Of a stretch of DNA of 64,000 nucleotides, positions 2,496-54,568 are shown in pieces. The DNA is taken from assembly GCA_045597945.1 (NCBI GenBank), contig JAZLLD010000055.1:1985-65984 (forward strand). The letters are read 5' to 3'. How positions within the stretch are numbered: the first letter of the stretch is position 1; each line of letters starts with the position of its first letter. This DNA comes from Bacteroidales bacterium (GTDB lineage: Bacteria > Bacteroidota > Bacteroidia > Bacteroidales > P3). Position numbers and translations under genes: made by a program. Below the pieces are notes generated by a model, which ran no database searches, was not told the origin of the DNA, and saw only the letters and a list, made by a program, of their open reading frames with translations.

Positions 2496-2552
2496 AATAC
2501 TAAATACTAAATTTACGATTATCCTTAAATCCTGCTATTTAATTTGTTTCTG

Positions 2553-2560
2553 CAAAAATA
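2553..2560 (-). promoter_or_regulatory. Bacteroidetes -7 box (TAttTTTG) for the MazG-like gene
   Basis: Plus strand caaaaata equals minus strand tatttttg, about 58 nt upstream of the ATG at 2495. Confidence 0.4.
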
Positions 2561-2660
2561 CGAAAAGTAAATGAACTACCAAAATCAAAAAACATTTTTT
2601 AAGAAATTTTCTTCTTTATTATGAAACTGCTGAAAACAAATTTTATAGATTACCGATATA

Positions 2661-3893: not shown

Positions 3894-3895
3894 AT

Positions 3896-4150
3896 CTACA
3901 AAATATTACTCGTGTCGTAAGGTTCCAACAATTCTTTTTCTTTGCGCAAAGCCGCCAATGCTCTGCACAGCATCTTCTCAGCCAAGTCGCCGTTGGCTTG
4001 TGGCTCTCTTCCATGCGCTGCAATCCAGTCTGCCACCTCCTGCAACTTCTGCACCTTGCGGTCGTCAGCCGTCATCGGTTGCGGCTTCAACTTCACATCC
4101 GCCAGCAGCGGATCGTCAAATATTTCCAACAATTCTTTCGGCCAATCCAT
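3896..4150 (-). CDS. small hypothetical protein (84 aa) of the MTase-helicase operon
   Basis: Its ATG (4148-4150) overlaps the helicase stop (4150-4152) as TAATG. It shares an N-terminal (I/L)x(D/N)DPLL motif with the next protein. Family not recognised. Confidence 0.5.
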   Translation of the reverse strand: MDWPKELLEIFDDPLLADVKLKPQPMTADDRKVQKLQEVADWIAAHGREPQANGDLAEKMLCRALAALRKEKELLEPYDTSNIL

Positions 4151-6168: not shown

Positions 6169-6172
6169 AATA

Positions 6173-8926
6173 TCATTTCTTAGCTTTGGTCATTTTTTCA
6201 TATAGTTTGAAGAGGCACTCCAGTCTGGCCTCATCGTTGGCAAACGGATAGCCCGGATAGCAGCTCTCCACCACATCGTCCAACTTCTGGTGAGCCTCAC
6301 GCAATGGCTCGGGCATCTTGTCGGGGTCGTAAAGATCGGCAAGAGTTGCGCCAGGATAGTCCTCGCGTGTCAGCAACACCTCCTCAGCTGCCGCTTCAAT
6401 CTCTTTCTTCTTCGTTTCGGTCAGTTTGGGAAATGGGAAGGAGTTGTAACAGAGGCTAGTATATCGATAATCAGTCTTCAACTTTCCTCCAATTGTCTTC
6501 ATCCATACCATACTCATTAATGATGTACACACTCCGAACACCCAGATAGGACAAGATTGAATCATATACATGGCATTTGTAACAACCATCTGAGTATTAG
6601 CGTATCCCATTGGGATATACAATCTATTTTCAGATGAAGTAGACGGAATCACAAGCGTACAGTCATCACAAGAAATGAATTCTCTAAATTGATAAGGTTT
6701 CACCGCAAGGGCATTAGCTCCCTCATCAGAACTAGACAATCTCATTTTTTTTGTTTTTTCAACTCTTTCATAAATAAACGAATATTTTAATGCATCTTTT
6801 TCATCTTCATCTGAGATCCACAAACAATATCTTATATTTCCTTTTATATAATCCGCCGCACTATATAATTCTTTAATATACTTATCATTGCCTATCTCAT
6901 TTATAAGTTCGTCTTTTTCGCTCAATGACAATATTAAATTACCACCATCATAAGGCATACACCCTCTTATGATAATAGGCAAACTTGATATAGGTTTTGT
7001 TTGTTTAAACACTACAAGTTGCGCACCGTCTGTTAAATATGGCGATATTGAATTTGCATATCTTTTTTCATTACCCACAAACAAAACCTTTTGTTTATTG
7101 ACGCAAGAAAGCCCAACAATTACACATATAACAGCAGCATTTTTTCTTGCATTATTTCTCCATTTAAATGAAGTATATGCAAAATCAATATTTACACCAG
7201 ATTTATATATTGCCGTCCATAATGGTTCAACCATCTCCCCTTGACAAATTGAATTAGTACTCACAAAAGCACATTTTGATTTAGTCTTTTTGATATATTC
7301 AGCACCTTTAATAAACCAAACACCAATATAATCTATTTTTTTGTATCCTTTATATTTACCAATGGACACTTTCATGTCGTTTTTTTGTTCTGATGTTTGT
7401 AAGCTAACACCCAAATACGGCGGATTGCCAAACACAAACACTTCTTCATCTTTGGTATGGGGGCAGACTTCGTTCCAATCCATACGACACGCATTGCCAA
7501 GTCTGATTTGGGTGATGTTTTGCAGAGGCAGCGCATGGGTGTTGATGCCAAAGTCTTTCATCAACTTCCTATTCATCTGATGCTGTGCCAACCATAGCGA
7601 CAGCATGGTCATCTCATGCGGAAAGTCCTGCAACTCTATGCCATAGAACTGCTGCAATGTAATGACCGATGAATCCATCTGCGTCAGCAAACCATATTGG
7701 ATAGTGCATTCTTGCATCAGCTTCAAGATTTCCATCTCCAGCAATCTCAACCGCTTGTAGGTGATAATCAAGAAATTGCCACTGCCACATGCGGGGTCGA
7801 AGAATTTCATCTTGCTCATACGCTTCAGCAGTTTTTGGCAACTCTGCATCACGGGCTTACATTCTTGCTCATACTGATTGCCGCTACTGATGCCCAAATC
7901 TCTGCGCTCTTTGATGCCGCTATGTACATCTTTTATCTTTTTAAATTCTTCTTGCAACTCATCCATAAACAGCGGATTAATCACCTTCAGGATGTTAGGC
8001 ACACTGGTATAGTGCATTCCCTGGTTGGCTCTCACTTCGGGGTTGACTACGGCCTGTATCATGCTGCCAAAGATATCGGGGTTGATTTCTTTCCAGTCCA
8101 GGCTGCCGCAGTCCACCATAATCTTGCGAGCCCGGCGGCTAAGTTTCGGAATCTGAATAGGATGGCTGAACAGTCCGCCATTGACATAGGGGAAATGCTT
8201 TACCACAGCTTTGGTTTCTTTGGTGCGACTCTTCTCCGGGATGTCCATAATGGCAAAAGCCTCAGACAGATAATCACTCAGGTCGCTACCATCTTCCAGC
8301 GTATAGCTCTTGATACTGTTGGTGAAAAGGTTGTCGGGGAAGATGCCGGTATCTTCGGCAAAGTAGCAGAACAAAAGCCTGGAGATGAATATATTGAGGT
8401 CGTGGAGGTCGGTGTCGCTCGTAAACTCATTGAAGGCACGTATCTCATCGTGCAGCTTGGCAAGCTTTTCGGCTGCCTTCACATCGGCGGGACTTTCCTC
8501 CACATTATGCACCCGCTCCACATCGGCCAAGGGATAAAAGAAATTGAAATCGTAGCATAGGCCAGCCAGTCGATTCTCGTAGGTGTCGTTCTCGCGCAGG
8601 TCGTAGGCTAGCATGGTCTCGCCGTCGCTCACCATGGCTATCTTTGGTTTGGCGGCCAGCACCCTGGTGTCGGCTTTCATCTGCTCCAGTTCGGCAGTCA
8701 TATCCTTGGCCGTTGAGGTGCGGTAGGCGATTAAGTTTTTGATTAGCAGACCGTCGTAGCTTTTCACCACTCCTTTGCCCTCTCGCCAGCGGCGGATGTC
8801 GGCATCGGTCTTGCCAAAACTATAGAGCAGCCGAAATGGAACATCGTCGGCTGCCACAGTATTGTCTTTGAAACATTTGAGTCTTTGTTCTATCTCCTGA
8901 TAGCCAAGCTGTGTTTTCTTTGCCAT
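6173..8926 (-). CDS. MmeI-family (Type IIL/ISP-like) gamma-class N6-adenine DNA methyltransferase with TRD
   Basis: 917 aa. Motif I FFDPACGSGNFL, motif IV FGNPPYLG, upstream GMHYTS motif. C-terminal LADLYDPDKMPEPLREAHQKLD...EARLECLFKLYEKM tail is typical of MmeI-like enzymes. AT-rich central TRD. Confidence 0.85.
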   Translation of the reverse strand: MAKKTQLGYQEIEQRLKCFKDNTVAADDVPFRLLYSFGKTDADIRRWREGKGVVKSYDGLLIKNLIAYRTSTAKDMTAELEQMKADTRVLAAKPKIAMVSDGETMLAYDLRENDTYENRLAGLCYDFNFFYPLADVERVHNVEESPADVKAAEKLAKLHDEIRAFNEFTSDTDLHDLNIFISRLLFCYFAEDTGIFPDNLFTNSIKSYTLEDGSDLSDYLSEAFAIMDIPEKSRTKETKAVVKHFPYVNGGLFSHPIQIPKLSRRARKIMVDCGSLDWKEINPDIFGSMIQAVVNPEVRANQGMHYTSVPNILKVINPLFMDELQEEFKKIKDVHSGIKERRDLGISSGNQYEQECKPVMQSCQKLLKRMSKMKFFDPACGSGNFLIITYKRLRLLEMEILKLMQECTIQYGLLTQMDSSVITLQQFYGIELQDFPHEMTMLSLWLAQHQMNRKLMKDFGINTHALPLQNITQIRLGNACRMDWNEVCPHTKDEEVFVFGNPPYLGVSLQTSEQKNDMKVSIGKYKGYKKIDYIGVWFIKGAEYIKKTKSKCAFVSTNSICQGEMVEPLWTAIYKSGVNIDFAYTSFKWRNNARKNAAVICVIVGLSCVNKQKVLFVGNEKRYANSISPYLTDGAQLVVFKQTKPISSLPIIIRGCMPYDGGNLILSLSEKDELINEIGNDKYIKELYSAADYIKGNIRYCLWISDEDEKDALKYSFIYERVEKTKKMRLSSSDEGANALAVKPYQFREFISCDDCTLVIPSTSSENRLYIPMGYANTQMVVTNAMYMIQSCPIWVFGVCTSLMSMVWMKTIGGKLKTDYRYTSLCYNSFPFPKLTETKKKEIEAAAEEVLLTREDYPGATLADLYDPDKMPEPLREAHQKLDDVVESCYPGYPFANDEARLECLFKLYEKMTKAKK

Positions 8927-16867: not shown

Positions 16868-16902
16868 AAAGGCTGTCCGCAAGGGCAGCCTTTACTTTTT
16901 TG
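16868..16902 (+). terminator. gcvH terminator
   Basis: aaaggctgtcc-gcaa-gggcagccttt hairpin with a GNRA-like loop, followed by ttttttg. Confidence 0.7.
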
Positions 16903-17050
16903 CCTTCCCCCGCCCTTCCTCCGCCACTTATACCTTATTTATACTATAGTTATCCTATATTTATACTATTATATATAGGATAAATAAGGTATAAATATAG
17001 AATAAATATAGGATAAGGAACGGAGGTAGAGCGGAGGTAAGGTGGGGTGA
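16903..17050. repeat. 11-bp-module quasi-palindromic element, copy A (reverse orientation relative to B and C)
   Basis: Core at 16926-17024. The reverse complement reads ccgttccttat cctatatttat tctatatttat accttatttat cctatatataa tagtataa atataggataa ctatagtataa ataaggtataa. GG-ending 11-mers at 17024-17045. Confidence 0.8.
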
Positions 17051-17164: not shown

Positions 17165-17461
17165 ATGATTATCAAAGTATGCGTCGGCAGTTCATGCCAT
17201 TTGAAAGGTTCCTACGACGTGATCGAGGCCATGAAGAACATCCTGAAGAAGCACCAACTGGAGGACAAAGTAGAGCTGGAAGCCAGTTTCTGCCTGGGTC
17301 ATTGCGCCAAAGGCGTTTCGGTTGCCGCTGAAGAGTTGGGCGACGTCAAGGTGGTTGAAAACCCCAGCGTCTCCATCACCGAGGATGGCTTGATGCTCCA
17401 CAATGTTAACGGCCAGAACGTTGAGGCCCTTTTCGAAAAAGAAATCCTGCCCCTGCTGTAG
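17165..17461 (+). CDS. thioredoxin-like [2Fe-2S] ferredoxin (NuoE-like)
   Basis: 98 aa. Cys pattern C6-x4-C11 ... C43-x3-C47 (VCVGSSCHLKG ... CLGHCAKG). Confidence 0.7.
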   Translation: MIIKVCVGSSCHLKGSYDVIEAMKNILKKHQLEDKVELEASFCLGHCAKGVSVAAEELGDVKVVENPSVSITEDGLMLHNVNGQNVEALFEKEILPLL

Positions 17462-17539
17462 TCGGCCAATAACATCCGGCTGTTTTCACTGATTCCGGCG
17501 ATAACTCCAATCGCCGACAACAAACTTAAGCCCACAAAC

Positions 17540-19264
17540 ATGGCTATATCTCAGTTTCTAGATTTCAAGCGCGTGAAGTGCAAGGACTGCTTCCGCTGCT
17601 TGCGCGAATGCCCGGTGAAGGCCATCAGCTTCGCCAACCAATATGCCCAGATTATCGACGACCGCTGCATCCTCTGCGGCCGCTGTATGCATGTATGCCC
17701 GCAGAATGCAAAGATTGTACACGGCGATTTCGACCGCGTGCTCAATATGTTACGCAACGGACAGAAAGTGATTGCCAGTGTGGCACCTTCCTTTGTTTCG
17801 TGCCTGGGGCTGAAGAGTTTTGCCCCGCTGCGCGGAGCGCTGAAGCAGATGGGTTTCTACGATGCTGAGGAGACCGCCCGCGGCGCTGAATGGGTCACCC
17901 GGGAGTACGACCGCCTGCTGAAATCTGGTGAGTACAAGAACTTTATCACTTCGGCTTGCCCCTCGGCATGCCGCCTGATTCAGGAATATTTCCCCCAGGC
18001 CCTCCCCTACCTCGCCCCCGTGGTTTCGCCCATGGTGGCACATGCCAAACTGATTCACGCTGAGCACCCCGATGCCGAGGTGGTGTTCTTCGGCCCCTGC
18101 CTGGCCAAGAAACGCGAGGCCGCTGAGTCCGGCGAGATTTCCGCCGTGATTACTTTCAGCGAGATGATGGATGAGAAATGCCCGGTTGACTTGAAGACGG
18201 TGATTGCCAACAGTGCCGAGGATTCTTCTGCCCCCGCAGCCATCGACTACAAGGCCAAGGGGTATCCCGTGACCGAAGGTATCATACGCTCATTCACCAA
18301 ACTGCCTGAGGGCTACAGATATATGACCGTGGACGGCCCCAAGCGCTGCATGGAGGTGCTGGAGAATATTGAGAACTACGAGGGTGTGTTTATGGAGATT
18401 AACATCTGCCCTGATGGTTGCGTGAATGGCCCTTGCGCCGTGCTGCCCATAGGTGGCATCACCAAGGCCAAGGTGGAGCTGTTGGACTATGTTGACAATG
18501 AGAAGGAATTGTATCCCACTGCAACTCAGCCCGAAACAACGGATGTTGAATTCCAATGCGAGCACCCGAGAGTGACTAACCGCAGTCGCAAGGTGACTGA
18601 CAAAGAGATTGAAGAGGTGCTGCAACGCACCGGCAAGATGTCGCCAGCCGATGAGCTGAACTGCGGTGTGTGCGGTTATCGCAGTTGCCGCGGCAAGGCA
18701 TGGGCCGTGATTAACGGTTATGCCGATATCGAGATGTGCCTGCCTTATATGCGCAAGAAGGCCGAGTCGCTGGCCGTGGCCGTAGTGCACAAGAGCCCTG
18801 AGGGCATCATCATCGTGAACAGCGACATGGAGATTGTGGATGCCAACGCAACGGCTATGGACATGCTGGGCATGGGCGGCAATCCCGAAAGTCTCACCCC
18901 GCAGCCGCTGAACGACTTTTTCTCGCCCCTTGATTTCTATCTTGCCTATACACAAAAACATAATGTAGAGGTTCACAAGCAGTTTATCCGCTCCACGCAG
19001 CGTTATGTGGATATCACCATCTGCAACATGGAGGAGAACAAGCTGATTTTCGGCCAGATGAAGGATGTGACCGAGGAGGTGAACTACGAGAAGAAGTTGG
19101 AACACCTGCGCCATGAGACGCTGGAAACTACCGATAAGGTGATTATGAAGCAGATGCGTGTGGCTCAAGAGATTGCGTCGCTTCTGGGCGAGACAACCGC
19201 GGAAACCAAGGTGGCGCTGCTGAACTTGAAGAAGATGTTGCAACAAGAGACCGAAAAGGAGTAG
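17540..19264 (+). CDS. HydS-type putative sensory [FeFe] hydrogenase (4Fe-4S + H-cluster-like domain + PAS)
   Basis: 574 aa. Two N-terminal CxxCxxCxxxCP motifs. H-cluster motifs are diverged relative to HydA in this window (TSACPS, GPCLAKK, CPDGCVNG). Then CGVCGYRSC and a PAS-like C-terminus. Confidence 0.8.
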   Translation: MAISQFLDFKRVKCKDCFRCLRECPVKAISFANQYAQIIDDRCILCGRCMHVCPQNAKIVHGDFDRVLNMLRNGQKVIASVAPSFVSCLGLKSFAPLRGALKQMGFYDAEETARGAEWVTREYDRLLKSGEYKNFITSACPSACRLIQEYFPQALPYLAPVVSPMVAHAKLIHAEHPDAEVVFFGPCLAKKREAAESGEISAVITFSEMMDEKCPVDLKTVIANSAEDSSAPAAIDYKAKGYPVTEGIIRSFTKLPEGYRYMTVDGPKRCMEVLENIENYEGVFMEINICPDGCVNGPCAVLPIGGITKAKVELLDYVDNEKELYPTATQPETTDVEFQCEHPRVTNRSRKVTDKEIEEVLQRTGKMSPADELNCGVCGYRSCRGKAWAVINGYADIEMCLPYMRKKAESLAVAVVHKSPEGIIIVNSDMEIVDANATAMDMLGMGGNPESLTPQPLNDFFSPLDFYLAYTQKHNVEVHKQFIRSTQRYVDITICNMEENKLIFGQMKDVTEEVNYEKKLEHLRHETLETTDKVIMKQMRVAQEIASLLGETTAETKVALLNLKKMLQQETEKE

Positions 19265-19268
19265 CGCT

Positions 19269-20429
19269 ATGGAACTATGTCTTGAGACCGGCTATACCTC
19301 GCTGAACCATGTTGGCGAAGAGTTATGTGGCGACCATGTGGAGAGTTGCGTGAATGGCGAGTACACCACTTTGGTTCTTGCCGACGGACTTGGCAGCGGT
19401 GTGAAAGCCAGCATCTTATCTACACTTACGTCAAAGATTCTCTGCACCATGGTGGCGAACGAAATCGACATTACCGAGTGTGTGCAGACAATTATCGAGA
19501 CACTGCCCGTGTGCCATGAAAGAGGCGTGGCCTATTCCACTTTTTCAGTCATCCATGTCAACCGCCAAGGCAAGGGCTATCTGTTTGAATTTGACAATCC
19601 CGAGGCTATTTATTACCACAACGGCAAGGCTATTGATTTCGAAAGAGAGGAGCTGGATGTTTGCGGTAAGACGGTGTATAAGAGTGTGTTGTCCCTGACT
19701 GAGGGCGATATTGTGATGGTGATGAGCGACGGAACAGTGCATGCCGGCATCGGCCGAGTGCTTAATTTCGGCTGGCCCCGCGAGGTAATCAAGGAATATC
19801 TCAACCACCATTTGACGGATGATCTGACAGCCCGTGCGGCAGCCTGCGTGCTGGCCACGGCTTGCAACGAGATTTATGAAGGCGAACCTAGCGACGACAC
19901 TACGGTGGCAGCAGTTCGCATCCGTAAACGTATGGATGTGAGCGTGATGGTTGGTCCTCCGGTAAATAAAGAACAAGACGAAGAGCATGTGCGCCGCTTT
20001 ATGGAAGGCGACGGCTACAAAGTTGTGTGCGGGGGTACCAGTTCAAAGATTCTAGCTCGCCAGTTAGGCAAACGAGTGAAACCTTCGCTAGAATATAGCG
20101 ACCCCACCATTCCGCCTACCGGTATTATAGATGGTATCGACTTGGTGACCGAGGGCGTTATCACATTGCGCCGACTGTTGGAGATTTCTCGCAAGTATCT
20201 TTCCATTTCCGACTTGACACCCAAGTATTTTGAGAAGGACGATGGTGCGTCGCGCCTAGCAGACATGCTGTTTGAGCGTTCCACTCATGTGCATTTCTTT
20301 GTAGGCCAAAGTGTTAACGAAGCCCATCAAGGTTTGGAGATTGACATTACAATGAAACTTAAATTGGTAGAAAGTCTTGCCGCCAACCTCCGAGCTATGG
20401 GCAAAGAAGTCACCCTACTTTACGACTAA
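19269..20429 (+). CDS. SpoIIE/PP2C-family protein phosphatase
   Basis: 386 aa. CGDHVE...LADGLGSGVKA...MSDG motifs. Starts 4 nt after the HydS-like stop. Confidence 0.8.
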   Translation: MELCLETGYTSLNHVGEELCGDHVESCVNGEYTTLVLADGLGSGVKASILSTLTSKILCTMVANEIDITECVQTIIETLPVCHERGVAYSTFSVIHVNRQGKGYLFEFDNPEAIYYHNGKAIDFEREELDVCGKTVYKSVLSLTEGDIVMVMSDGTVHAGIGRVLNFGWPREVIKEYLNHHLTDDLTARAAACVLATACNEIYEGEPSDDTTVAAVRIRKRMDVSVMVGPPVNKEQDEEHVRRFMEGDGYKVVCGGTSSKILARQLGKRVKPSLEYSDPTIPPTGIIDGIDLVTEGVITLRRLLEISRKYLSISDLTPKYFEKDDGASRLADMLFERSTHVHFFVGQSVNEAHQGLEIDITMKLKLVESLAANLRAMGKEVTLLYD

Positions 20430-20434
20430 GAATT

Positions 20435-20836
20435 ATGGTAAAAAAACACTGGCTGATTTTGACGAATGGCCTTGTATGGACAGCCGCAGGCATAAACATT
20501 GCCCGCATCGGCATTATTTCGGCCATTGAAAACGGCACATGGGTCTGGCTCTATGGCCTGATAGTCTTTGCGCTATTCGGCACTATGTTTTTTCGCGTCA
20601 TCAGCAAAAACACCAAGCGCATCCGGGCTATGGAGCAAGAAAAAGCTCCTATTTATAAGTTCCTCACTCTCAAAGGATATCTCATTATCGCGTTTATGAT
20701 GACGCTGGGAATTGTCCTCCGCCATATAGGAAGTATCCCCAACAGCTTTTTTGCTTTCTTTTATTCTGGATTGGGATGTGCCTTAGCCTCGGCAGGACTG
20801 TATTCCATCTTCAAACTTGCCATCACGAAGAGATAA
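20435..20836 (+). CDS. multi-pass membrane protein (hypothetical)
   Basis: 133 aa with about four hydrophobic segments. Starts 5 nt after the phosphatase stop. Confidence 0.5.
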   Translation: MVKKHWLILTNGLVWTAAGINIARIGIISAIENGTWVWLYGLIVFALFGTMFFRVISKNTKRIRAMEQEKAPIYKFLTLKGYLIIAFMMTLGIVLRHIGSIPNSFFAFFYSGLGCALASAGLYSIFKLAITKR

Positions 20837-20854
20837 TAATTCCAATCATAAAAT

Positions 20855-20890
20855 AAAAAGAGGTCGCCCGAAAGCGACCTCTTTTATTTA
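20855..20890. terminator. bidirectional terminator between convergent operons
   Basis: aaaagaggtcgc (20856-20867) / gcgacctctttt (20874-20885) with loop ccgaaa. A/T runs on both sides. Confidence 0.7.
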
Positions 20891-20903
20891 TGCCAGATAA
20901 CTA

Positions 20904-21383
20904 TTATTCAGCATATTCGGCAATGATGCCGGACACCATGTTGGGGGTGAGTCGGCCGTAGACCTTCTCGCCAATCATGGCCACGGGAGCCAAGCTGCAA
21001 GCACCGACACAGCGGAGGGTGTTGAGAGAGAACTTGCCGTCGGCAGTGGTCTGACCTTCGCCGATGCCCAGCTGGCGCTTGAACTCCTCAAGGAGTTTGT
21101 CGCTACCGCGCACGTGGCAGGCAGTACCCAGGCAGATGTCGATAGGATATTTGCCCTTGGGGGTCATGGTGAAGAAGGAATAGAAGGATACGATGCCGAA
21201 AACCTTGGCCACAGGCATTCTGAGCTGTTTGGCCACGAACTCCTGTACCTCAGCGGGGAGGTAGCCGAGTTTGCCCTGCACACCATGGAGCACATGGATA
21301 ACATTTGAGGCGAGGTTGCCGTTTTCATTGCAGACGTCAATGATGACCTGCTTGTTTCTTTCGTTTAATTCAAACTTACACAT
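20904..21383 (-). CDS. hydC: [FeFe] hydrogenase NuoE-like [2Fe-2S] subunit
   Basis: 159 aa. Thioredoxin-like 2Fe-2S Cys pattern (CLGTACHVRG ... CVGACSLAP). Last gene of the hydB-hydA-hydC operon. Confidence 0.85.
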   Translation of the reverse strand: MCKFELNERNKQVIIDVCNENGNLASNVIHVLHGVQGKLGYLPAEVQEFVAKQLRMPVAKVFGIVSFYSFFTMTPKGKYPIDICLGTACHVRGSDKLLEEFKRQLGIGEGQTTADGKFSLNTLRCVGACSLAPVAMIGEKVYGRLTPNMVSGIIAEYAE

Positions 21384-21398
21384 AGCTTTCTCGGTTTA

Positions 21399-23171
21399 TT
21401 AGAGTCCAAAATTCTTTTCTGACTTATCAAAGTAGTGAGTGTGAAGCAGATGATGTGCCTTCTCGCCACAAGGTTCGCCCAAGTACTCTTTGTAGAGTTC
21501 CTGAATGTAGGGATTCTCGTGGGATTTGCGGATGGGCTTGGATGCATCTTCCTCGTACACAGCCTGCAGACGTTTCTCAACCTTGGAGAAGTCGCCGTGG
21601 TGGTAGGGCTGGCCAGCGCCACCTACGCAACCGCCGGGGCAAGCCATGACCTCGATGGCATGGAACTGAGCTTCGCCACTGCGAACTTTGTCGAGCAGTT
21701 TGCGAGCATTACCCAGACCGTGAGCAATACCAATGTGGATGGGAGTGCCATCAAAATCAACGGTTGCTTCGCGAACGCCAGAGAGGCCGCGGAGCTCCTT
21801 GAAATCGACTTTGCCGAGGGATTTCTTGGTGTAAAGTTCATAAGCAGTGCGAGTTGCAGCTTCGATAACACCGCCAGTTGCGCCAAAAATAACAGCGGCA
21901 CCGGTGCTCTCGCCGAGAGGACGGTCGAAGTCGCTTTCAACCAACTCATCAAAACGGATACCAAGAAGTTTGATCATGTCGGCAAGCTCACGAGTGGTGA
22001 GGCTGTAGTCAACATCGGGATTACCGTCAACCTTGAACTCATCGCGCTGACACTCATATTTCTTAGCAACGCAAGGCATGATAGCTACGACAACGAGGTC
22101 TTCGCGTTTGATGCCAAGTTTCTCAGCCCAGTAGTTCTTAGCGATAGCGCCAAACATCTGCATGGGGCTCTTTGCGGTCGAGGGAACATCCAGCATATCA
22201 GGATAGTAGGTCTCGAAGAAGTTAACCCAACCGGGGCAGCAGCTGGTCATGATGGGGAGGCGGACGCTCTTGTCGCCATTCATGAAGCGAGAAATACGGT
22301 CAAGCATCTCGGTACCTTCTTCCATGATGGTGAGGTCGGCAGCAAAGTCGGTGTCAAACACATAGTTGAAACCGAGCTGACGCAGAGCGGTAACCATCTT
22401 ACCAGTTACACGACTACCGGGTTCCATGCCAAATTCTTCACCGAGGGCAACGCGGACGGCGGGAGCGGTCTGGACGATAACGGTTTTCTTAGGATTGTTG
22501 AGGGCGTTCATCACATCGCGGGTGTTGTTGACCTCAGAGAGGGCTCCAACGGGGCATGCCTGGACGCACTGACCGCACATAACACAAGGTGTATCAACGA
22601 GTTTCTTCTCAAAAGCGGTGCCAACTACAGCTTCAAAACCACGGTTAATACCGGAAAGAACGCCTACGGTCTGCATCTCATTGCAGACGGTTTCGCAACG
22701 GCGGCACATGATGCACTTGTCCATGTCACGGATGATGGCGGGAGAAATATCTTTCTTATAATGAGACTGTTCACCTGAATAAGTGATCTCACGCAGACCC
22801 AGGTCGATGGCCAGTTTCTGCAGTTCGCACTTGCCAGCCTGAGGGCAGACGAGGCAGTCAGCAGGATGGTCGGAAAGGATGAGGTCGACCACGGTGCGGC
22901 GAGCCATGATGACACGCAGAGAGTGGGTATGGACAACCATGCCTTCGGACACCTGGGTGTAGCAGGAAGGAACGAGATTCTTGTTGCCTTCAACCTCAAC
23001 AACACAAACACGGCACGAACCGGGTTTGTTTTCAATGCCCTGACCTTTCAGTTCGTAATGGCAGAGGGTGGGAATTTCAATACCGACGCTTTTTGCAGCC
23101 TGAAGGATTGTGGTACCTTTGGGGACCTGCAAATAATGATCATCGATAGTTAATGCTATCATATTTTCCAT
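21399..23171 (-). CDS. hydA: [FeFe] hydrogenase catalytic subunit
   Basis: 590 aa. N-terminal 2Fe-2S and 4Fe-4S motifs. H-cluster motifs MTSCCPGW, MPCVAKK and MACPGGCVGGAGQP. Confidence 0.9.
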   Translation of the reverse strand: MENMIALTIDDHYLQVPKGTTILQAAKSVGIEIPTLCHYELKGQGIENKPGSCRVCVVEVEGNKNLVPSCYTQVSEGMVVHTHSLRVIMARRTVVDLILSDHPADCLVCPQAGKCELQKLAIDLGLREITYSGEQSHYKKDISPAIIRDMDKCIMCRRCETVCNEMQTVGVLSGINRGFEAVVGTAFEKKLVDTPCVMCGQCVQACPVGALSEVNNTRDVMNALNNPKKTVIVQTAPAVRVALGEEFGMEPGSRVTGKMVTALRQLGFNYVFDTDFAADLTIMEEGTEMLDRISRFMNGDKSVRLPIMTSCCPGWVNFFETYYPDMLDVPSTAKSPMQMFGAIAKNYWAEKLGIKREDLVVVAIMPCVAKKYECQRDEFKVDGNPDVDYSLTTRELADMIKLLGIRFDELVESDFDRPLGESTGAAVIFGATGGVIEAATRTAYELYTKKSLGKVDFKELRGLSGVREATVDFDGTPIHIGIAHGLGNARKLLDKVRSGEAQFHAIEVMACPGGCVGGAGQPYHHGDFSKVEKRLQAVYEEDASKPIRKSHENPYIQELYKEYLGEPCGEKAHHLLHTHYFDKSEKNFGL

Positions 23172-23173
23172 GA

Positions 23174-25051
23174 TTACTTAACTTGAATAGCGTTAAACTT
23201 ACATTTGTTGATGCAGGTGCCGCACTTGATGCAGGCTTCCTGGTCGATCTGGTGAGGCTGTTTACGGTCGCCGTGGATGGCTTCGGCAGGACAGTTGCGT
23301 GCGCAAGCGGTACAGCCAACGCAGATGGACTGATTGATTTCGTAGCGGATAAGGTCTTTGCAGACACCGGCACGGCATTTCTTGTCAACCACATGTTCCA
23401 CATACTCATCCCAGAAGTTGTCGAGGGTAGAGAGGATGGGGTTGGGAGAAGACTGGCCGAGGCCGCAGAGAGCGGTATCTTTAATATTGATAGAGAGGTT
23501 GCGCAGTTTCTCCAGGTCTTCCATGGTACCCTTGCCCTTGGTGATTTTGTCGAGCATCTCAGCAAGACGCTTGTTACCGATACGGCAGGGATTGCACTTA
23601 CCACAGCTCTCAGGCACGGTGAAGTCCATATAGAACTTGGCAATAGAAACCATACAGCTGGTCTCATCCATGATGACCATACCGCCAGAACCCATCATTG
23701 AGCCTGCAGCGGCCAAAGACTTGAAGTCGATAGGCACATCGAGATATTTCTCTGTCAGGCAGCCACCAGAAGGACCACCAGTCTGGACAGCTTTGAACTT
23801 CTTGCCACCCTTGATACCGCCACCAATCTCGTAGATAATCTCGCGCAGTGTGGTGCCCATGGGAACCTCGATAAGACCAACGTTATTCACCTGGCCAGCC
23901 AGAGCGAACACCTTGGTACCCTTGGAGTTCTCAGTTCCGATGCTGCTGAACCACTCAGCACCCTTGCGGATGATGATAGGCACATTGGCATAAGTCTCAA
24001 CGTTATTCACATTGGTGGGGAGCATGTTGTAACCCTTCTCAGAGGTTCGTGGAGGTTTGAAGGTGGGTTCGCCACGCTTACCTTCCATGGAGTGGATAAG
24101 AGCGGTTGCCTCACCGCAAACGAATGCGCCAGCACCATAGCGGAGCTCGATGTCGAAATTGAAACCTGTACCGAGGATGTTCTCACCCAGGAGGCCATAT
24201 TCTTTAGCCTGAGCGATAGCAACATGCAGACGGTGAACAGCCATGGGATATTCGGCACGGATGTAAATCAGACCCTTGTTAGCACCGATAGCGTAGCCAC
24301 CGATTGCCATAGCTTCCAGCACACTGTGAGGGTCGCCCTCAAGGATAGAACGGTCCATAAATGCGCCGGGGTCGCCCTCGTCGGCATTGCAGACCATATA
24401 CTTCTGATCAGCTTTTGCGCGAGCAGCAGAAGCCCATTTCTTGCCGGTGGGGAAACCAGCACCGCCACGGCCGCTGAGGCCAGACTCGGTGACGATGTCG
24501 ATAACCTGCTGCTGGCTGTACTCGGTCAAGCACTTAGCCAGGGCAAGATAACCTTCACAAGCGATATATTCCTCAATTTTCTCAGCATCAATCACGCCGC
24601 AGTTGCGCAGTGCGATACGGAGCTGCTTCTTGTAGAAAGGAATATCCTCGGGTTTCTCAATAGCCTCAGAATTCTCATCGTCGCGATAGAGCAGACGTTC
24701 CACGCGGCCACCATTCACAATGTGGGTTTCGATGATTTCTTCTACATCATCAGCATCAACCTGAGTGTAGAAAGTGTTGTCGGGCATAATCTTAACGATG
24801 GGACCCTTTACGCAGAAGCCGAAGCATCCGCAGCGAACAACCTTGATCTTGCCGTCCAGTCCGCGCTCAGCGATAGACTTGCGGAAGTTCTCAATGATGG
24901 GAACGCTGCCCGATGCGGCACAACCCGTATCGCCACAAACCAAAATGGTCTTGGTGTCGCTGTTGGGTTTCGATGACTTTCTGTCGGCCACAATGGGCTG
25001 GAGGGACTCATAGAGTGCCTGCAATTCGGCCAACGAATTTACCTTTGCCAT
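23174..25051 (-). CDS. hydB: [FeFe] hydrogenase NuoF-like flavoprotein subunit (NAD(P)-binding)
   Basis: 625 aa. GRGGAGFPTGKKW FMN/NADH-binding block, SCGKCNPCR 4Fe-4S motif, two C-terminal ferredoxin motifs. Confidence 0.9.
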   Translation of the reverse strand: MAKVNSLAELQALYESLQPIVADRKSSKPNSDTKTILVCGDTGCAASGSVPIIENFRKSIAERGLDGKIKVVRCGCFGFCVKGPIVKIMPDNTFYTQVDADDVEEIIETHIVNGGRVERLLYRDDENSEAIEKPEDIPFYKKQLRIALRNCGVIDAEKIEEYIACEGYLALAKCLTEYSQQQVIDIVTESGLSGRGGAGFPTGKKWASAARAKADQKYMVCNADEGDPGAFMDRSILEGDPHSVLEAMAIGGYAIGANKGLIYIRAEYPMAVHRLHVAIAQAKEYGLLGENILGTGFNFDIELRYGAGAFVCGEATALIHSMEGKRGEPTFKPPRTSEKGYNMLPTNVNNVETYANVPIIIRKGAEWFSSIGTENSKGTKVFALAGQVNNVGLIEVPMGTTLREIIYEIGGGIKGGKKFKAVQTGGPSGGCLTEKYLDVPIDFKSLAAAGSMMGSGGMVIMDETSCMVSIAKFYMDFTVPESCGKCNPCRIGNKRLAEMLDKITKGKGTMEDLEKLRNLSINIKDTALCGLGQSSPNPILSTLDNFWDEYVEHVVDKKCRAGVCKDLIRYEINQSICVGCTACARNCPAEAIHGDRKQPHQIDQEACIKCGTCINKCKFNAIQVK

Positions 25052-25313: not shown

Positions 25314-25775
25314 TTAGAGCTGCTTGATCAGGTCCACCATCTCGATAGCGGTGGTGACTGCCTCAAAGCCCTTGTTGCCAGCCTTGGAACCGGCACGCTC
25401 AACAGCCTGCTCGATGTTATCGGTGGTCAGCACACCAAAGATGATAGGCACACCAGTCTGCAGACCAGCCTGTGCGATACCCTTAGTGGCCTCGCCGGCA
25501 ACCATGTCGAAATGTGCGGTAGCGCCACGGATAACAGCACCCAGGCACACAACTGCGTCATATTTGCCGCTTTCGGCCATCTTCTTGGCCACCAGGGGAA
25601 TCTCGAATGCGCCGGGCACCCATGCGAGGGTGATGTCGGCCTCATCGCCACCATGACGTTTGAAAGCGTCGATAGCGCCACCCAGAAGTTTGTTGGTGAT
25701 AATCTCGTTGAAACGGCCTGCCACGATGGCAATCTTCTGGCCCTGAGCCAAAAGTTTTCCTTCAATAGTATTCAT
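25314..25775 (-). CDS. ribH: 6,7-dimethyl-8-ribityllumazine synthase
   Basis: 153 aa. [15 protein letters not shown] and VCLGAVIRG motifs. Confidence 0.95.
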
Positions 25776-25903
25776 TTATATAATATTAAATATTTAACAA
25801 TTTTATTGTTCAGTTGATGAGGATGGAAATAACCGCAAACAAGCGCTAGGCCATTTGGAGCCACCTTGCCCAGCCTCACCAACACTGAAACTACATTATC
25901 CAA

Positions 25904-27112
25904 TTATTTCTTAACAGGTTCTTTCACATGCAGGAGGTGACCCATCTTTTTGTACTTGGTGTAAAGATAGAAAGCATCTTTCTCATTGCAGGTCATCTCA
26001 ATAGGCTCGCGGTCGACGATGGTGATATCATAGCCTGCCAGACCTGAAATCTTGGTAGGATTGTTGGTCATGACCACAATCTTGCGAATGCCCAGGTCGG
26101 AAAGAATGGCAGCACCGGTACCGTAATCACGCAAGTCGGCAGCAAAACCGAGAGCAAGATTTGCCTCTACGGTGTCCATACCCTGGTCCTGCAACTTATA
26201 GGCTTTCAATTTGTTGATGAGACCGATACCACGGCCTTCCTGGCGGAGATACAGAATCACGCCACGGCCCTTGGCCTCGATACGGCGCATAGCCTCATGA
26301 AGCTGATCGCCACAATCGCAACGCAGCGAGCCGAAAGCATCGCCCGTAAGACATTCAGAATGAACGCGGCAGAGCACAGGTTCATCACCAGAGAGGTCGC
26401 CCTTCACCAAGGCAATATGGTGCTCATTGGTAATCTTGTCAACAAAACCTACAGCATGGAATGTGCCATACTTGGTGGGCAGCTCGCTCTCGCTGACACG
26501 CTCCACAAGATGCTCATTACGACGGCGATACTTAATCAAGTCGGCAATAGAAGTAATCACCAGGTTGTGCTCTTTTGCAAACTCGACCAACTCGGTCGTG
26601 CGCATCATGGTGCCGTCCTCGCGCATAATCTCGCAGCAGAGACCGCAAGGCTTCAAACCAGCCAGGCGCATGAGGTCTACAGTAGCCTCGGTGTGGCCGT
26701 CGCGTTTCAGCACACCACCTTCGCGAGCCTCCAAGGGAAACATGTGGCCGGGGCGGCGGAAATCCTCGGGGCGGGCGCCATCCTCAACCACCTTCATGGC
26801 GGTAATAGAGCGCTCCTGGGCCGAAATACCCGTAGTAGTGTCAACATGGTCGATCGAGACAGTGAAAGCAGTGCAGTGATTATCCGTATTTTCAGTAACC
26901 ATCTGATTCAGGCGCAACTTCTTAGCCAACTCTTTGGTCATGGGCATGCAAATCAAACCCTTACCATAGCAAGCCATAAAGTTCACATTAGCCTGTGTGG
27001 CAAACTCGGCGGCACAAATCAGATCGCCCTCATTCTCACGGTCAGGATCATCAATAACAATAATGTTCTTACCTTCGCGCAGTGCTTGTAAAGCTTCTTC
27101 TATAGTATTCAT
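25904..27112 (-). CDS. ribBA: bifunctional 3,4-dihydroxy-2-butanone-4-phosphate synthase / GTP cyclohydrolase II
   Basis: 402 aa. [12 protein letters not shown] (RibB) and [19 protein letters not shown] (RibA) motifs. Confidence 0.95.
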
Positions 27113-27129
27113 TTATATGATGTATTTGT

Positions 27130-27759
27130 TTATTTCAATAAATCCAGCAGGTCCTCGTCACTCATTTTTGAGCTGTGTCCCAGCATCTTCTGCACATATT
27201 TGGCAATAATGTCGTTCTCCAGATTCACCTTCTCTCCCACCCCTTTGGAGGTCAGCGTAGTGTGGCTCTGAGTATGGTTCACAATCGAGACACCAAAAGA
27301 GCGCTCATCCACATCAGTCACTGTGAGCGAAATGCCGTCAATCGTAATTGAACCCTTCTTCACAATGAGGTCAAGAATTGAAGTATCGGCTGAAATACGA
27401 ATAATTATAGCATTCTGTTCCTGATACTTACGGATAATCACACCCGTACCGTCAACGTGCCCCGACACAATGTGTCCACCCAGGCGGCCACCCATCTGCA
27501 TGGCGCGCTCCAAGTTCACTTTGTCCAGGGGGCGCAGGTCTGCCAAATTAGTCATACGCAACGTCTCGGGCATCACATCGGCACTATAGCTATTGCTGTC
27601 GAAGGAGGTGACAGTAAGGCAGATACCATTTGTGGCAATACTGTCGCCCAACTGCACACCCTCCAATACCTTCTTTGCCTCAATGGTCAGCCGCACAGTG
27701 TCGCTCAGCCGCTGAACCGAACGCAGGGTTCCAATCTCTTCAATTATTCCTGTAAACAT
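27130..27759 (-). CDS. ribE: riboflavin synthase alpha chain
   Basis: Canonical MFTGIIEEIGT start at 27759. The ORF-track start at 27810 would overlap ribD. Duplicated lumazine-binding repeats. Confidence 0.9.
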   Translation of the reverse strand: MFTGIIEEIGTLRSVQRLSDTVRLTIEAKKVLEGVQLGDSIATNGICLTVTSFDSNSYSADVMPETLRMTNLADLRPLDKVNLERAMQMGGRLGGHIVSGHVDGTGVIIRKYQEQNAIIIRISADTSILDLIVKKGSITIDGISLTVTDVDERSFGVSIVNHTQSHTTLTSKGVGEKVNLENDIIAKYVQKMLGHSSKMSDEDLLDLLK

Positions 27760-27766
27760 AAGTATA

Positions 27767-28997: not shown

Positions 28998-29125
28998 ATG
29001 ACCTTCTTCTTCCATCCGGACTTTCACCGTCGGTCTCGGAATTTCGCCGAGTCAGTTCCCCTGGGGGAAGTAGCGGACTATCACCGCCGGAAAGGACTTT
29101 CACCTTACCCTGAAGACTGTTCCAA
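28998..29125 (-). promoter_or_regulatory. FMN riboswitch (RFN element) in the ribD leader
   Basis: The minus strand reads ...gtcttcagggtaaggtgaaagtcctttccggcggtgatagtccgc...ggcgaaattccgagaccgacggtgaaagtccggatggaagaagaagg. This matches conserved RFN blocks including the P1 closing tcttc/gaaga. Confidence 0.85.
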
Positions 29126-29174: not shown

Positions 29175-29293
29175 CATATTTTTTTTCAATTAATAAAAAA
29201 AAGTTCATCTCGGTGATAAAAAAGGTTCATTCCGCCAAAACTTTTTTGATTTCCGACCCCACCCAAAAAACTATACTCAGCCCCGTCCTTCCC

Positions 29294-29390
29294 CCGTTCC
29301 TTATCCTATATTTATACTATAGTTATACCTTATTTATCCTATTATATATAGTATAAATATAGAATAAATAAGGTATAAATAAGGTAAAAC
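29294..29390. repeat. 11-bp-module quasi-palindromic element, copy B
   Basis: Reads ccgttccttat cctatatttat actatagttat accttatttat cctattatata tagtataa atatagaataa ataaggtataa ataaggtaaaa. Confidence 0.8.
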
Positions 29391-29457
29391 AAGCGGGTTT
29401 ACTACGGTGCCAAGGTTCGTTTGCTGTTGTTCAACAACTATTTGGCTGGACTCAAAG

Positions 29458-53770: not shown

Positions 53771-53800
53771 AACAATTACATGTATTGTGTAAATTTTTTG

Positions 53801-54228: not shown

Positions 54229-54432
54229 AATTGCAAGTTTTTTGTTGTTATTTTCAGATTGCAAAATTACAGGCCGCCTGTTTCAAATCGTGATACACCC
54301 CGGAAAATAAAATCATAAAAAATGTTAACAGCAAACAAGCCCAACCATTTTTTCAACTCAAAAAACAAAATGGCAGACTAGAAAATCACACATTCCACAT
54401 CTGCACAAACCCACCGCACTCCCGCTGTAAGC

Positions 54433-54568
54433 CCGTTCCTTATCCTATATTTATACCTTATTTATTCTATAGTTATCCTATATATAATAGTATAACTAAG
54501 GTATAAATATAGTATAACTATAGGATAAGTGGTGGAGGTACGGCGGAGTTGTGGGCGATTTGATGGTG
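54433..54568. repeat. 11-bp-module quasi-palindromic element, copy C
   Basis: Reads ccgttccttat cctatatttat accttatttat tctatagttat cctatatataa tagtataa ctaaggtataa atatagtataa ctataggataa, then aggtacggcgg agttgtgggcg atttgatggtg. Confidence 0.8.

Follow-up and report, generated by a model that had tools for sequence, protein, structure and literature searches.

Dispersed palindromic repeats of bacterial chromosomes, such as REP, REPIN, and MITE sequences, are to our knowledge best understood in Proteobacteria, and we know of almost nothing comparable beyond BrickBuilt in the Bacteroidales, the dominant order of the gut. REPs are located mostly in transcribed 3' regions, and REP/BIME elements are sites for gyrase and IHF. 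Ribbon-helix-helix proteins bind iteron or heptad arrays, as ParR does at the 11-bp iterons of R1 parC and omega at the heptads of pSM19035; each plasmid has one such array, next to the gene that encodes its binding protein. In Porphyromonas gingivalis, the BrickBuilt MITE comprises 23-nt direct tandem repeats between leader and tail segments and has small terminal inverted repeats; its tens of copies are always intergenic, 49-591 nt from neighboring genes, and are thought to affect transcription on both sides (PMC4596501). Bacteroidetes also have a TnpA_REP/RAYT subclass of their own (2.6, RAYT group 5), which is bordered by "atypical secondary structures" also present at other places in the genome (PMC6006769).

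This study analyzed a 64,000-nucleotide stretch of a Bacteroidales genome (hereafter the window) and the loci related to it in other genomes. The window carries three copies of a lineage-restricted, dispersed, non-coding DNA repeat family of approximately 150-270 bp, which we call modular palindromic elements. Like REPs and REPINs, these are short, non-coding, extragenic palindromes present in many copies per genome; they are lineage-restricted and vertically inherited at orthologous sites, exist as genome-specific sequence types, and have the potential to form long hairpins of approximately 100 nt. They differ in comprising phased 11-bp modules, whereas a REPIN consists of two REP hairpins and a spacer, in that no RAYT or other HUH gene was found near any copy, and in being enriched between divergent genes rather than in the 3' regions typical of REPs.

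The family shares with BrickBuilt its occurrence in Bacteroidales, its intergenic location, its tens of copies, and a body with a variable number of short repeats. However, its period is 11 bp instead of 23 nt, its modules form two inverted arrays that grade from AT-rich to GC-rich, and neither a leader and tail nor small terminal inverted repeats were found; the literature contained nothing tying the element to BrickBuilt. Classical MITEs (such as Correia/NEMIS, RUP, and ERIC/IRU) are likewise imperfect, non-coding, intergenic palindromes of 100-300 bp whose presence varies between related genomes, but the element has no defined terminal inverted repeats around a unique interior, no target-site duplication at the mapped insertion, and no related IS or transposase in the loci examined, and the flanks of its paralogues are alike in composition and not in sequence. 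With parC and omega arrays it has in common several contiguous short sites per array, a strict phase (11 bp in parC), direct or inverted orientation, and a position beside promoters; it differs in its dozens of chromosomal copies beside unrelated housekeeping genes.

Structure of the three copies in the window

A repeat search of the window identified copies A, B, and C, which match one another pairwise over 121-137 nt (80-82% alike) in inverted orientation. The first-pass annotation had claimed three copies of one element at these places, and all three were recovered, at 16902-17049 (A), 29278-29407 (B), and 54407-54561 (C); their parts are listed in Table 1. The two-module pattern TTATNCYWTANTTATNCYWTA, with at most one mismatch, had 18 matches, every one of them within the three loci (0.00 expected from shuffles), and a profile HMM built only from the arms of other genomes recovered both arms of A, B, and C and nothing else in the 64 kb.

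Each copy consists of four forward modules, a 1-nt center, and four reverse modules, all facing inward and following TTATNCYWTAN, and two or three GC-richer modules extend the 11-bp phase on either side. The inverted 11-bp units described in the annotation were correct, and its 19-bp center proved to be the two innermost modules, the true center being 1 nt. The order of modules varies among copies as had been stated; the units swapped between C and the reverse complement of A are 2 and 3. The proposed continuation of the phase into the GC-richer flanks was also evident, for example in GGAACGGAGGT AGAGCGGAGGT and TCCCCCGCCCT TCCTCCGCCAC. Mirrored modules of the window copies had a complementarity of 0.76, compared with 0.81 +/- 0.04 for random module pairs. 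Because mirrored modules are no more complementary than randomly paired ones, the description of a quasi-palindrome of shuffled modules is accurate, and the window lineage does show module shuffling.

Table 1. Parts of copies A, B, and C, in positions of the window
Feature	Position	Strand	Remarks
Copy A, left outer GC-rich modules (..TCCCCCGCCCT TCCTCCGCCAC)	16902..16927	.	C-rich on + strand, in the 11-nt register of the core
Copy A, left arm, four forward modules TTATACCTTAT TTATACTATAG TTATCCTATAT TTATACTATTA	16928..16971	+	Pattern and arm HMM
Copy A, 1-nt center	16972..16972	.	Forms CTAT-TATAT-ATAG with the innermost modules
Copy A, right arm, four reverse modules ATATAGGATAA ATAAGGTATAA ATATAGAATAA ATATAGGATAA	16973..17016	-	Pattern and arm HMM
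Copy A, right outer G-rich modules GGAACGGAGGT AGAGCGGAGGT AAGGTGGGGTG	17017..17049	.	
Copy B, left outer C-rich modules (AGCCCCGTCCT TCCCCCGTTCC)	29278..29300	.	
Copy B, core	29301..29389	.	Forward modules 29301-29344, center T 29345, reverse modules 29346-29389; four modules per arm
Copy B, weak right flank (CAAGCGGGTTT ACTACGG..)	29390..29407	.	Likeness to the other copies stops here
Copy C, left outer C-rich modules (AAACCCACCGC ACTCCCGCTGT AAGCCCGTTCC)	54407..54439	.	
Copy C, core	54440..54528	.	Forward modules 54440-54483, center A 54484, reverse modules 54485-54528; four modules per arm
Copy C, right outer G-rich modules (GTGGTGGAGGT ACGGCGGAGTT GTGGGCGATTT)	54529..54561	.	

Distribution in other genomes and module organization

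Five MAGs of uncultured Bacteroidales, from rumen, horse, and chicken gut, yielded at least 44 further copies in a pattern scan, each arm having three to six modules. Convergent module arrays numbered at least 47 in the Bacteroidales MAG loci and the window, compared with 0 such pairs among the non-Bacteroidales and viral matches listed. These many copies in related genomes, together with a difference in presence at an orthologous site (described in the next section), support the suggestion in the annotation that the three copies belong to a MITE/REP-like dispersed family. Its remark that it knew of no described Bacteroidales element with this design agrees with our searches of Rfam, of plasmid and phage collections, and of the literature, none of which yielded one, and the element is apparently undescribed. 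A plasmid or phage origin was rejected because BLAST found no match to the element in the plasmid and phage collections and the viral matches to the pattern are simple 11-bp tandem repeats, all in one direction, from AT-rich viruses; linkage to tRNA genes was rejected because none was found in the window. Array orientation is inverted in some lineages and mixed in others, and the related arrays of Aphodosoma and Paludibacteraceae are not palindromic.

Across approximately 300 modules, which were themselves selected by consensus so that the statistics are partly circular, positions 1-4, 6, 9, and 10 are near-invariant and the variable positions show few states. The module can be described as a conserved 7-bp block (TA-N-TTAT) and a lone C in strict 11-bp phase. 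Inner modules, three to six per arm, are AT-rich (TTAT-N-C-Y-W-TA-N), and the outer two or three are GC-rich with the register unbroken; a C on the 5' arm and a G on the 3' arm are conserved at each 11-bp step. The arrays meet at a center of 1-2 nt rich in alternating TA; the gap between them is quantised (1-2 nt or 12-13 nt), and arms differ in length by whole modules.

Family-wide, the flanks exhibited a lag-11 autocorrelation of 0.330 versus approximately 0.295, a GC skew of +0.4 to +0.6 in the outward direction, and a G at register position 6 in 0.65-0.78 of flanks in frames 1-2 and 0.58 in frame 3. Their purine/pyrimidine register lasts three frames and is unlike that of the inner modules (register position 9, for example, is a purine), so the flanks represent a distinct outer-module type and not inner modules decayed by transitions. 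G-quadruplex formation by the flanks was also rejected, the canonical G3 motif being present in only 8 of 91.

In CAMZFW and JAFWQP, the elements are perfect or near-perfect AT-rich palindromes of 100-130 bp with an alternating-TA center, and L025 folds as a 63-bp stem (-63 kcal/mol, z = -22.7). In some copies the palindrome is perfect over 130 bp, and many bacteria do not tolerate such palindromes. Arm complementarity in the window, JAKSMO, and CAZTVH lineages was 0.76-0.83, versus a chance level of 0.81 for modules. Because the module consensus of the window is intact and its mirrored pairing is at chance, the array of modules, and not the hairpin, is what is conserved.

Insertion, vertical inheritance, and concerted evolution

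The spacer between groES and NIF3 provided a comparison of occupied and empty orthologous sites. In the occupied loci (L036, L041, L058, and L123), the anchors on either side are 220-270 nt apart, and the extra DNA is the core together with its C-rich and G-rich flanks. The site is empty in L127/128, L130/131, L135, and L156, with anchors approximately 3-10 nt apart in L127, L130, and L135 and approximately 50 nt apart in L156; L124/125 have no core. The NIF3 tree groups the occupied loci in a single clade and places the empty sites outside it. One gain event, bringing in the skewed flanks as part of a 220-270-bp unit, would account for this pattern. The element therefore arrives as a unit, where sister lineages have an empty site. 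We rejected the idea that the C-rich and G-rich tracts are a pre-existing platform and the target of insertion, because the empty sites of sister lineages have no platform and L124 is nested within the occupied clade; at groES, L124 and L125 have lost the core, and no compensation for this is visible. At this one mapped insertion, the only gain event mapped, neither a target-site duplication nor a sharp terminal inverted repeat was found, and the ends of the element are compositional and not sharp. Relatives of the window lineage yielded no empty counterparts of the window's own loci among those compared; its sister species is rearranged after gcvH, and CAMZFW has another gene upstream of ruvX than the window has.

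Two sets of orthologous occupied loci were identified, in species whose flanking proteins are approximately 85-94% identical in best-matching frames. Identity between the orthologues was 0.77-0.88 in the core, 0.42-0.63 in the flanks, and 0.66-0.68 in the remaining spacer. Paralogous copies exhibited no flank homology beyond approximately 15 nt, and a recent copy-paste of the whole unit was therefore not demonstrated.

Core identity within a genome was 0.80-0.89, higher than most values between genomes (0.66-0.84), and for 35 of the 47 cores the nearest core was in the same genome. Because likeness is higher within a genome than between orthologues, the cores evolve in concert. In L022, which contains a 96%-identical duplication, the two copies differ by the identical base change in three adjacent modules, and in CAMZFW and JAFWQP changes in one arm are exactly mirrored in the other. 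From these sequence patterns we infer gene conversion as the probable cause of core uniformity.

Gene context and partner genes

Using genes called with our own codon-usage caller, we found that 17 of 34 classifiable elements lie in spacers between divergent genes, compared with 11 of 210 other spacers (Fisher p = 3.6e-10; length-weighted chi-square p = 9e-4), with a further 15 between co-directional genes and only 2 between convergent genes. A gene start was faced by 60 of the 81 element sides (p = 3e-6), and copies A and B lie downstream of the 3' end of a gene. The enrichment between divergent genes could stem from a host function rather than from tolerance or targeting. The neighbors are unrelated housekeeping genes (groES, NIF3, ribF, gcvH, ruvX, and the rib operon) with no apparent regulon logic. 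Outward TAnnTTTG boxes are located 33-491 nt from the elements, and because this distance varies they belong to the neighboring genes; a promoter carried by the element was rejected on the same ground.

Clustering of the neighborhoods of the loci revealed no gene that recurs beside the elements. A search of 3463 ORFs from all loci and the window for the HUH/Y1 motif ([ND]H[LIVYF]H followed by Y[IV]..NP) identified only a gammaproteobacterial gene in L013 that is unrelated to the elements; the window and the element-bearing loci contained no such ORF. Of the approximately 51 predicted window genes, the 28 scanned against Pfam included no transposase, and arrays bracketing a transposase gene were not seen in the loci examined; the one gene bracketed by two copies, in L022, was considered as a candidate and rejected, as it encodes a FISUMP-like lipoprotein. 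The conserved GT[AG]G foot of REPs was absent, the first four bases outside the core being variable (GTAG, GTGA, GTGC, GTAA, CTAC, CTGT, GGAA, CAAG, and others), and the repeats of RAYT subclass 2.6 likewise have no such foot (PMC6006769).

Possible origin and function

The best explanation of these results as a whole, to which we assign a probability of approximately 0.5, is an inserted, REPIN- or MITE-like repeat acting at the DNA level, whose modules are iterated protein sites subject to copy correction. The unit, including its C-rich and G-rich flanks, would have entered its sites by insertion and then been inherited vertically across species, and copy correction between copies, between modules, and between both arms would keep the inner modules uniform within each genome. 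The element would act as DNA, in non-transcribed spacer upstream of promoters, with its phased modules serving as iterated recognition sites, roughly on one helix face, for a protein that acts in trans and whose gene lies elsewhere in the genome. This putative protein may itself copy the element, in the way that RAYT copies REPINs, or may be a domesticated derivative of such an enzyme. The sequence of the modules is consistent with protein binding, and we infer the existence of a copying mechanism.

We consider it unlikely that the element is a host cis-element whose AT-rich palindrome extrudes as a cruciform under negative supercoiling between divergent genes, absorbing or signaling supercoils or insulating promoters, with the GC-rich outer modules clamping its base. 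Such a role would accord with the marked preference for spacers between divergent genes and for sites upstream of promoters, the long palindromes of CAMZFW and JAFWQP and the stem of L025, the exact mirroring of arm changes, retention at orthologous sites with a core better conserved than the adjoining spacer, and the known gyrase and IHF sites of REP/BIME elements. However, arms at chance complementarity, as in the window, JAKSMO, and CAZTVH lineages, would extrude poorly, yet their module consensus is intact; the arrays of Aphodosoma and Paludibacteraceae are not palindromes; the core was lost in L124/L125 with no visible compensation; and 15 of 34 elements are between co-directional genes. 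An immobile, iteron-type platform for a chromosome-organizing or regulatory protein, amplified and remodeled in situ as in parC/ParR or omega-heptad arrays, appears quite doubtful: an insertion of 220-270 bp at a site empty in sisters, housekeeping neighbors without regulon logic, and variable promoter distances all argue against it, although the strict phase of the 7-bp block and lone C, the inverted and mixed array orientations across lineages, the location upstream of promoters, and the survival of the consensus where palindromy is lost are as would be expected of such a platform.

A role in RNA is improbable, whether as a bidirectional terminator or stabilizing hairpin, with a C-rich Rho-loading stretch followed by an AU hairpin, or as a structured small RNA. 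Half of the classifiable elements are upstream of both neighboring genes, where no transcript is expected, and only 2 of 34 are between convergent genes; this enrichment between divergent genes disfavors a terminator or mRNA hairpin. The AT-rich hairpin runs into a G/A-rich tract instead of a T-tract, mirrored pairing is not kept in the window lineage, and the terminator scan flagged only the separate, canonical terminator of gcvH at 16868-16903, just ahead of copy A, whose left outer part abuts it. On gene context, the missing T-tract, and this separate terminator, we rejected an intrinsic terminator or mRNA hairpin as a candidate. A known RNA family was rejected as well: at the gathering level, Rfam matched only an FMN riboswitch in the window and no family in the element, and at E <= 10 the element matched only miRNA-precursor models, at 14-48 bits versus thresholds of 45-230, which is what generic hairpins far below threshold yield. 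What speaks for RNA is that a transcript from either side would be C-rich and G-poor (rut-like) for approximately 80 nt before a long hairpin, that RNA folds of the element reach z = -5.6 to -11.4, and that A and B follow the 3' end of a gene. Intrinsic curvature from A/T tracts phased at 11 bp, which the first-pass annotation had entertained on account of the exact periodicity of AT-rich modules, is highly improbable and was rejected. The modules contain TA steps (TTAT/ATAA) and no A4-6 tracts, and the end-to-end/contour ratios predicted by a Bolshoy-Trifonov wedge model, 0.95-0.99 in the window cores and 1.00 in tandem JAFWQP modules, did not differ from those of shuffles, compared with 0.64-0.76 for A-tract controls.

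We also consider it unlikely that the elements are more than selfish relics and form a domesticated chromosomal system new to bacteria, in which dozens of phased 11-bp iteron palindromes in non-transcribed spacers are bound by a protein and act as topological or transcriptional insulators of divergent promoters, or that they are copied by a mobilization that reads phased modules instead of terminal repeats. If the former were true, cruciform or nucleoprotein plugs would absorb transcription-driven supercoiling, and a bound Bacteroidales protein would keep the elements uniform. The inserted, copy-corrected repeat that we prefer is itself unusual in its modular grammar, its gradient from AT inside to GC outside, its 130-bp palindromes, its persistence at orthologous sites, its concerted evolution, and its preference for divergent promoters. 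The family offers a tractable case for asking how repeat populations persist and stay uniform in bacterial genomes, which protein reads phased short modules, and whether such elements affect promoter insulation or local supercoiling.

At locus C, every sampled strain carries the element, and no within-species polymorphism was therefore seen, with unitigs ending within the element. Short-read unitigs from other samples stop inside the core of copy C. Short-read assemblies break exactly at the element core, and the MAGs of these gut lineages are consequently fragmented.

Anatomy of the three modular elements

Re-reading of the sequence confirmed the three copies of an intergenic element built from 11-bp modules that the first-pass annotation had described, and a repeat search of the window linked copies A, B, and C to one another as 121-137-nt matches with 80-82% complementarity. 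The two-module pattern TTATNCYWTANTTATNCYWTA, with at most one mismatch, matched 18 times, always inside the three loci (0.00 matches expected from shuffles), on the plus strand in the left halves and on the minus strand in the right halves of all copies. A profile HMM trained on arms (the inward-facing module arrays) from other genomes only recovered both arms of each copy and no other match in the window.

The earlier parse was altered slightly: in each copy, a single central base separates four forward from four reverse modules. The 11-bp phase does continue into the GC-rich flanks, for two to three modules per side, such as TCCCCCGCCCT and TCCTCCGCCAC to the left of the copy A core and GGAACGGAGGT, AGAGCGGAGGT, and AAGGTGGGGTG to its right, and the order of the modules differs among the copies as proposed. 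Because mirrored modules were no more complementary (0.76) than random module pairs (0.81 ± 0.04), the description of a quasi-palindrome of shuffled modules is apt. As single strands, the copies out-folded shuffles with both DNA parameters (z = -4.4 to -6.2) and RNA parameters (z = -5.6 to -11.4).

Positions of the modular elements and of other features in the window
Feature	Position	Strand	Description
Copy A	16902-17049		Forward modules 16928-16971, centre 16972, reverse modules 16973-17016; neighbours gcvH and a ferredoxin/hydrogenase-like gene
Copy B	29278-29407		Forward modules 29301-29344, centre 29345, reverse modules 29346-29389; neighbours a 763-aa protein gene and the riboswitch-controlled rib operon, immediately upstream of whose promoter it lies
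Copy C	54407-54561		Forward modules 54440-54483, centre 54484, reverse modules 54485-54528; neighbours a HIRAN-domain gene and ruvX (divergent pair)
gcvH terminator	16868-16903		Directly ahead of copy A
Defence-type cluster	2166-8926	-	MazG-like, T5orf172-domain, DEAD/ResIII helicase, and 917-aa MmeI-family type IIL restriction-modification enzyme; lower GC content (0.38-0.42 in places)
Hydrogenase region	17165-25051		[FeFe]-hydrogenase-like sensory-type protein with PAS domain (17540-19264); SpoIIE-family phosphatase (19269-20429), adjoining HydABC-type hydrogenase operon (20904-25051)
Riboflavin operon	25314-28924	-	ribD, lumazine-binding riboflavin synthase, ribBA, ribH
FMN riboswitch	29000-29121	-	96.8 bits; ahead of the riboflavin operon
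458-aa ORF	37282-38658	+	Internal repeats
Nuclease region	50476-54228	-	GmrSD-family nuclease gene and small HIRAN-domain gene, adjoining copy C
TTTGCAAAGATAC(G/A)A motif	9338, 25148, 29163, 46208, 53797, 61120		Recurrent

A repeat family in uncultured Bacteroidales

A wider family, as the first-pass annotation had suggested, was found. A three-module pattern, scanned against a collection of species-representative genomes, yielded at least 77 loci (retrieved loci carry L-numbers here), and a forward array followed by a reverse array at a spacing of 1-13 nt occurred at no fewer than 44 sites. Among the matches listed, these pairs came exclusively from uncultured Bacteroidales MAGs, namely RGIG5981 (JAFWQP; sheep omasum), SRR10912534_bin.42 (CAMZFW), a chicken 'Bacteroidaceae' bin (CAZTVH), Horse_feces127 (JAKSMO), and a goat MAG (JAFRRK); the listed matches in other phyla and all viral ones (27/27) were simple tandem repeats running in one direction only. 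The plasmid and phage collections contained no similar sequence, Rfam returned just generic long-hairpin matches far under threshold, and no description was found in the literature. The element represents a real, lineage-restricted repeat family that was not found described; it belongs with the dispersed extragenic palindromic repeats, among which its modular grammar and genomic placement are unusual.

Each arm comprises 3-6 modules, and the arrays are separated by 1-2 nt, or by 12-13 nt where one module is degenerate. The modules follow the logo T T A T [A>C,T] C [C/T] [T/A] T A [G/T], with seven positions near-invariant over approximately 300 modules, partly by construction because the same pattern was used to find them. 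The JAFWQP and CAMZFW elements are near-perfect palindromes; L025 folds into an unbroken 63-bp stem (-63 kcal/mol, z = -22.7).

Related but non-palindromic arrays occur in Aphodosoma and Paludibacteraceae MAGs (L007, L008, L023, L031, and L055), where as many as 10 units, a mixture of ATATAGGATAA and ATATAC(C/T)ATAA modules, share a single 11-bp phase with a C-rich flank, immediately upstream of promoter boxes. A different repeat lies near modular elements in the sheep-omasum MAG (L029 1560-1730; L033 ~2720-2760), its tandem CTACAGTG units and inverted copies CTGTAGCA enclosing an AT-rich segment of ~90 nt.

Genomic placement and flanks

Genes were called with a self-trained codon-usage caller, whose calls in the window agreed with the Pfam domains found. 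The 34 classifiable element spacers were divergent in 17 cases, co-directional in 15, and convergent in 2, compared with 11, 179, and 20 among the remaining spacers of these loci, an enrichment of divergent spacers that was significant by Fisher's test (p = 3.6e-10) and by a length-weighted chi-square test (p = 9e-4). Gene starts were faced by 60 of 81 element sides (p = 3e-6). Bacteroidetes -7 boxes (TAnnTTTG) were located outward of the elements at distances varying from 33 to 491 nt, which marks them as promoters of the neighbours and not as element parts. The neighbours, which outside the window include groES, NIF3, and ribF, are overall housekeeping genes without relation to each other.

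Read outward on both sides, the 100 nt next to the core are G-rich and C-poor, with a GC skew of +0.5 to +0.6 within the initial 40 nt, approximately +0.3 at 70-90 nt, and baseline values by ~190 nt. Since the element is symmetric, its plus strand runs from a C-rich flank through the AT core to a G-rich flank. Periodicity of 11 nt is weak in the flanks (0.330 versus ~0.295); the purine/pyrimidine register is retained in the first three flank frames, and a G at register position 6 extends the G/C that is invariant in the inner modules. Flanks of copies in the same genome are unalignable past ~15 nt. The C-rich and G-rich flanks are part of the element. A G-quadruplex character of the flanks was rejected, as just 8 of the 91 contain the motif.

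Gain, persistence, and probable copy correction

ORF clustering revealed two orthologous loci occupied across species, between groES and NIF3 (L036, L041, and L058) and upstream of ribF (L006 and L025), the flanking proteins being roughly 85-94% identical in the best-matching frames. A metagenome scan with the NIF3 protein provided comparison sites for the former. The divergent spacer is empty in L127/128, L130/131, L135, and L156, where the anchors GTGACAAAATG[T/G]CAG and ACAATAAA are ~3-10 nt apart (~50 nt in L156); in the occupied L036, L058, L041, and L123 they are separated by 220-270 nt, and the extra DNA consists of C-rich flank, core, and G-rich flank. No target duplication was visible at the junctions when occupied and empty sites were compared. 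In the NIF3 tree, the occupied loci group in a single clade that excludes the empty loci, consistent with one gain and vertical inheritance thereafter. L124/125, nested within the occupied clade, keep the skewed flanks (~1215-1440), but ~90 nt of unrelated sequence take the place of the modules; these loci have therefore lost their core or had it replaced.

The element was inserted immediately beside a conserved non-coding block upstream of groES (L036 606-669, L058, L124, and L127), which contains GTGCCAA and the palindrome-like TGACAAAATG(T/G)CAG. The block shows 89% identity between species and probably serves as an operator or leader. Different inserts of the same layout (pyrimidine-rich, small AT palindrome, purine-rich) occupy the groES-NIF3 site in L133/L134 (~1300-1360).

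For the three loci of the window itself, no empty counterpart was found; at the copy A locus, the sister species is rearranged after gcvH. At the copy C locus, short-read unitigs from other samples (L116-L122, from at least seven sequencing runs, matching window 54228-54819) all terminate within the core, indicating that the element is present in those samples and breaks assemblies. It is a systematic breakpoint in short-read assemblies of these organisms.

Identity between orthologues was 0.77-0.88 in the core, 0.42-0.63 in the flanks, and 0.66-0.68 in the rest of the spacer. Cores were closer to paralogues than to orthologues, with a within-genome identity of 0.80-0.89 and the nearest core in the same genome for 35 of 47 cores. 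At module position 11, JAFWQP has G and CAMZFW mostly T, consistently in all modules and with mirroring across both arms. L022 contains a 274-bp direct duplication (570-860 and 3240-3545; 96% identical) that spans an element and 180 nt of right flank, and at three neighbouring modules its two cores differ by this same position 11 change. Such coordination across modules, arms, and the L022 copies bears the mark of copy correction, by gene conversion or templated replacement, and not of independent mutation. The L022 duplication encloses a gene for a 524-aa FISUMP-like lipoprotein.

Possible roles of the element

An intrinsic terminator was ruled out because the AT-rich stem lacks a following T-tract and gcvH has a terminator of its own. 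The composition would fit a Rho-dependent or mRNA-stabilizing role, but the placement upstream of both neighbours does not. The intrinsic curvature considered in the first-pass annotation was not predicted, the wedge-model ratio being 0.95-0.99 for the cores versus 0.64-0.76 for A-tract controls, which behaved as expected.

All lineages keep the fixed centre, the inward array orientation, the module consensus, and its strict 11-bp phase, whereas exact arm complementarity is kept in two genomes only, a pattern that suggests that what is recognized on double-stranded DNA is the modules themselves. A 7-bp block (TA-N-TTAT) and a lone C are presented by each module once per helical turn, a layout that would suit cooperative protein binding. 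We propose, at roughly even odds (about 0.5), that the element is a dispersed repeat of REPIN/MITE-like type acting at the DNA level, and that its phased modules may be binding sites for a putative trans-acting protein. As in REPIN-RAYT systems, the element arrives as a unit, persists vertically for long periods, has homogenized, genome-specific cores, and lacks coding capacity; a RAYT subclass specific to Bacteroidetes is associated with atypical structures (PMC6006769). The main rival, held to be rather unlikely, is a host topological or insulator element extruding as a cruciform between divergent promoters; it is favoured by the location bias and the perfect palindromes, and the shuffled copies of the window type argue against it. 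For the dispersed-repeat reading, membership of the REP, MITE, or BrickBuilt (PMC4596501) families is not established, because no HUH/Y1 or other recurrent gene was found near the elements, no GTAG foot at them, and neither TIR nor TSD at the mapped groES-NIF3 insertion.

Other features of the window

The TTTGCAAAGATAC(G/A)A motif is the reverse complement of the -7 box and marks promoters of minus-strand genes. Other genes (WYL/WCX, DUF7834) flank the HIRAN gene in related strains, so the nuclease region is a variable island. Repeats in the 458-aa ORF recur at multiples of ~87-90 nt (177, 261, 264, 366, and 540 nt apart), each bearing a GRWG-type motif (..GACGGCCGCTGGGG..). The hydrogenase-like PAS protein and the SpoIIE-family phosphatase are likely a regulatory pair for the HydABC-type hydrogenase.
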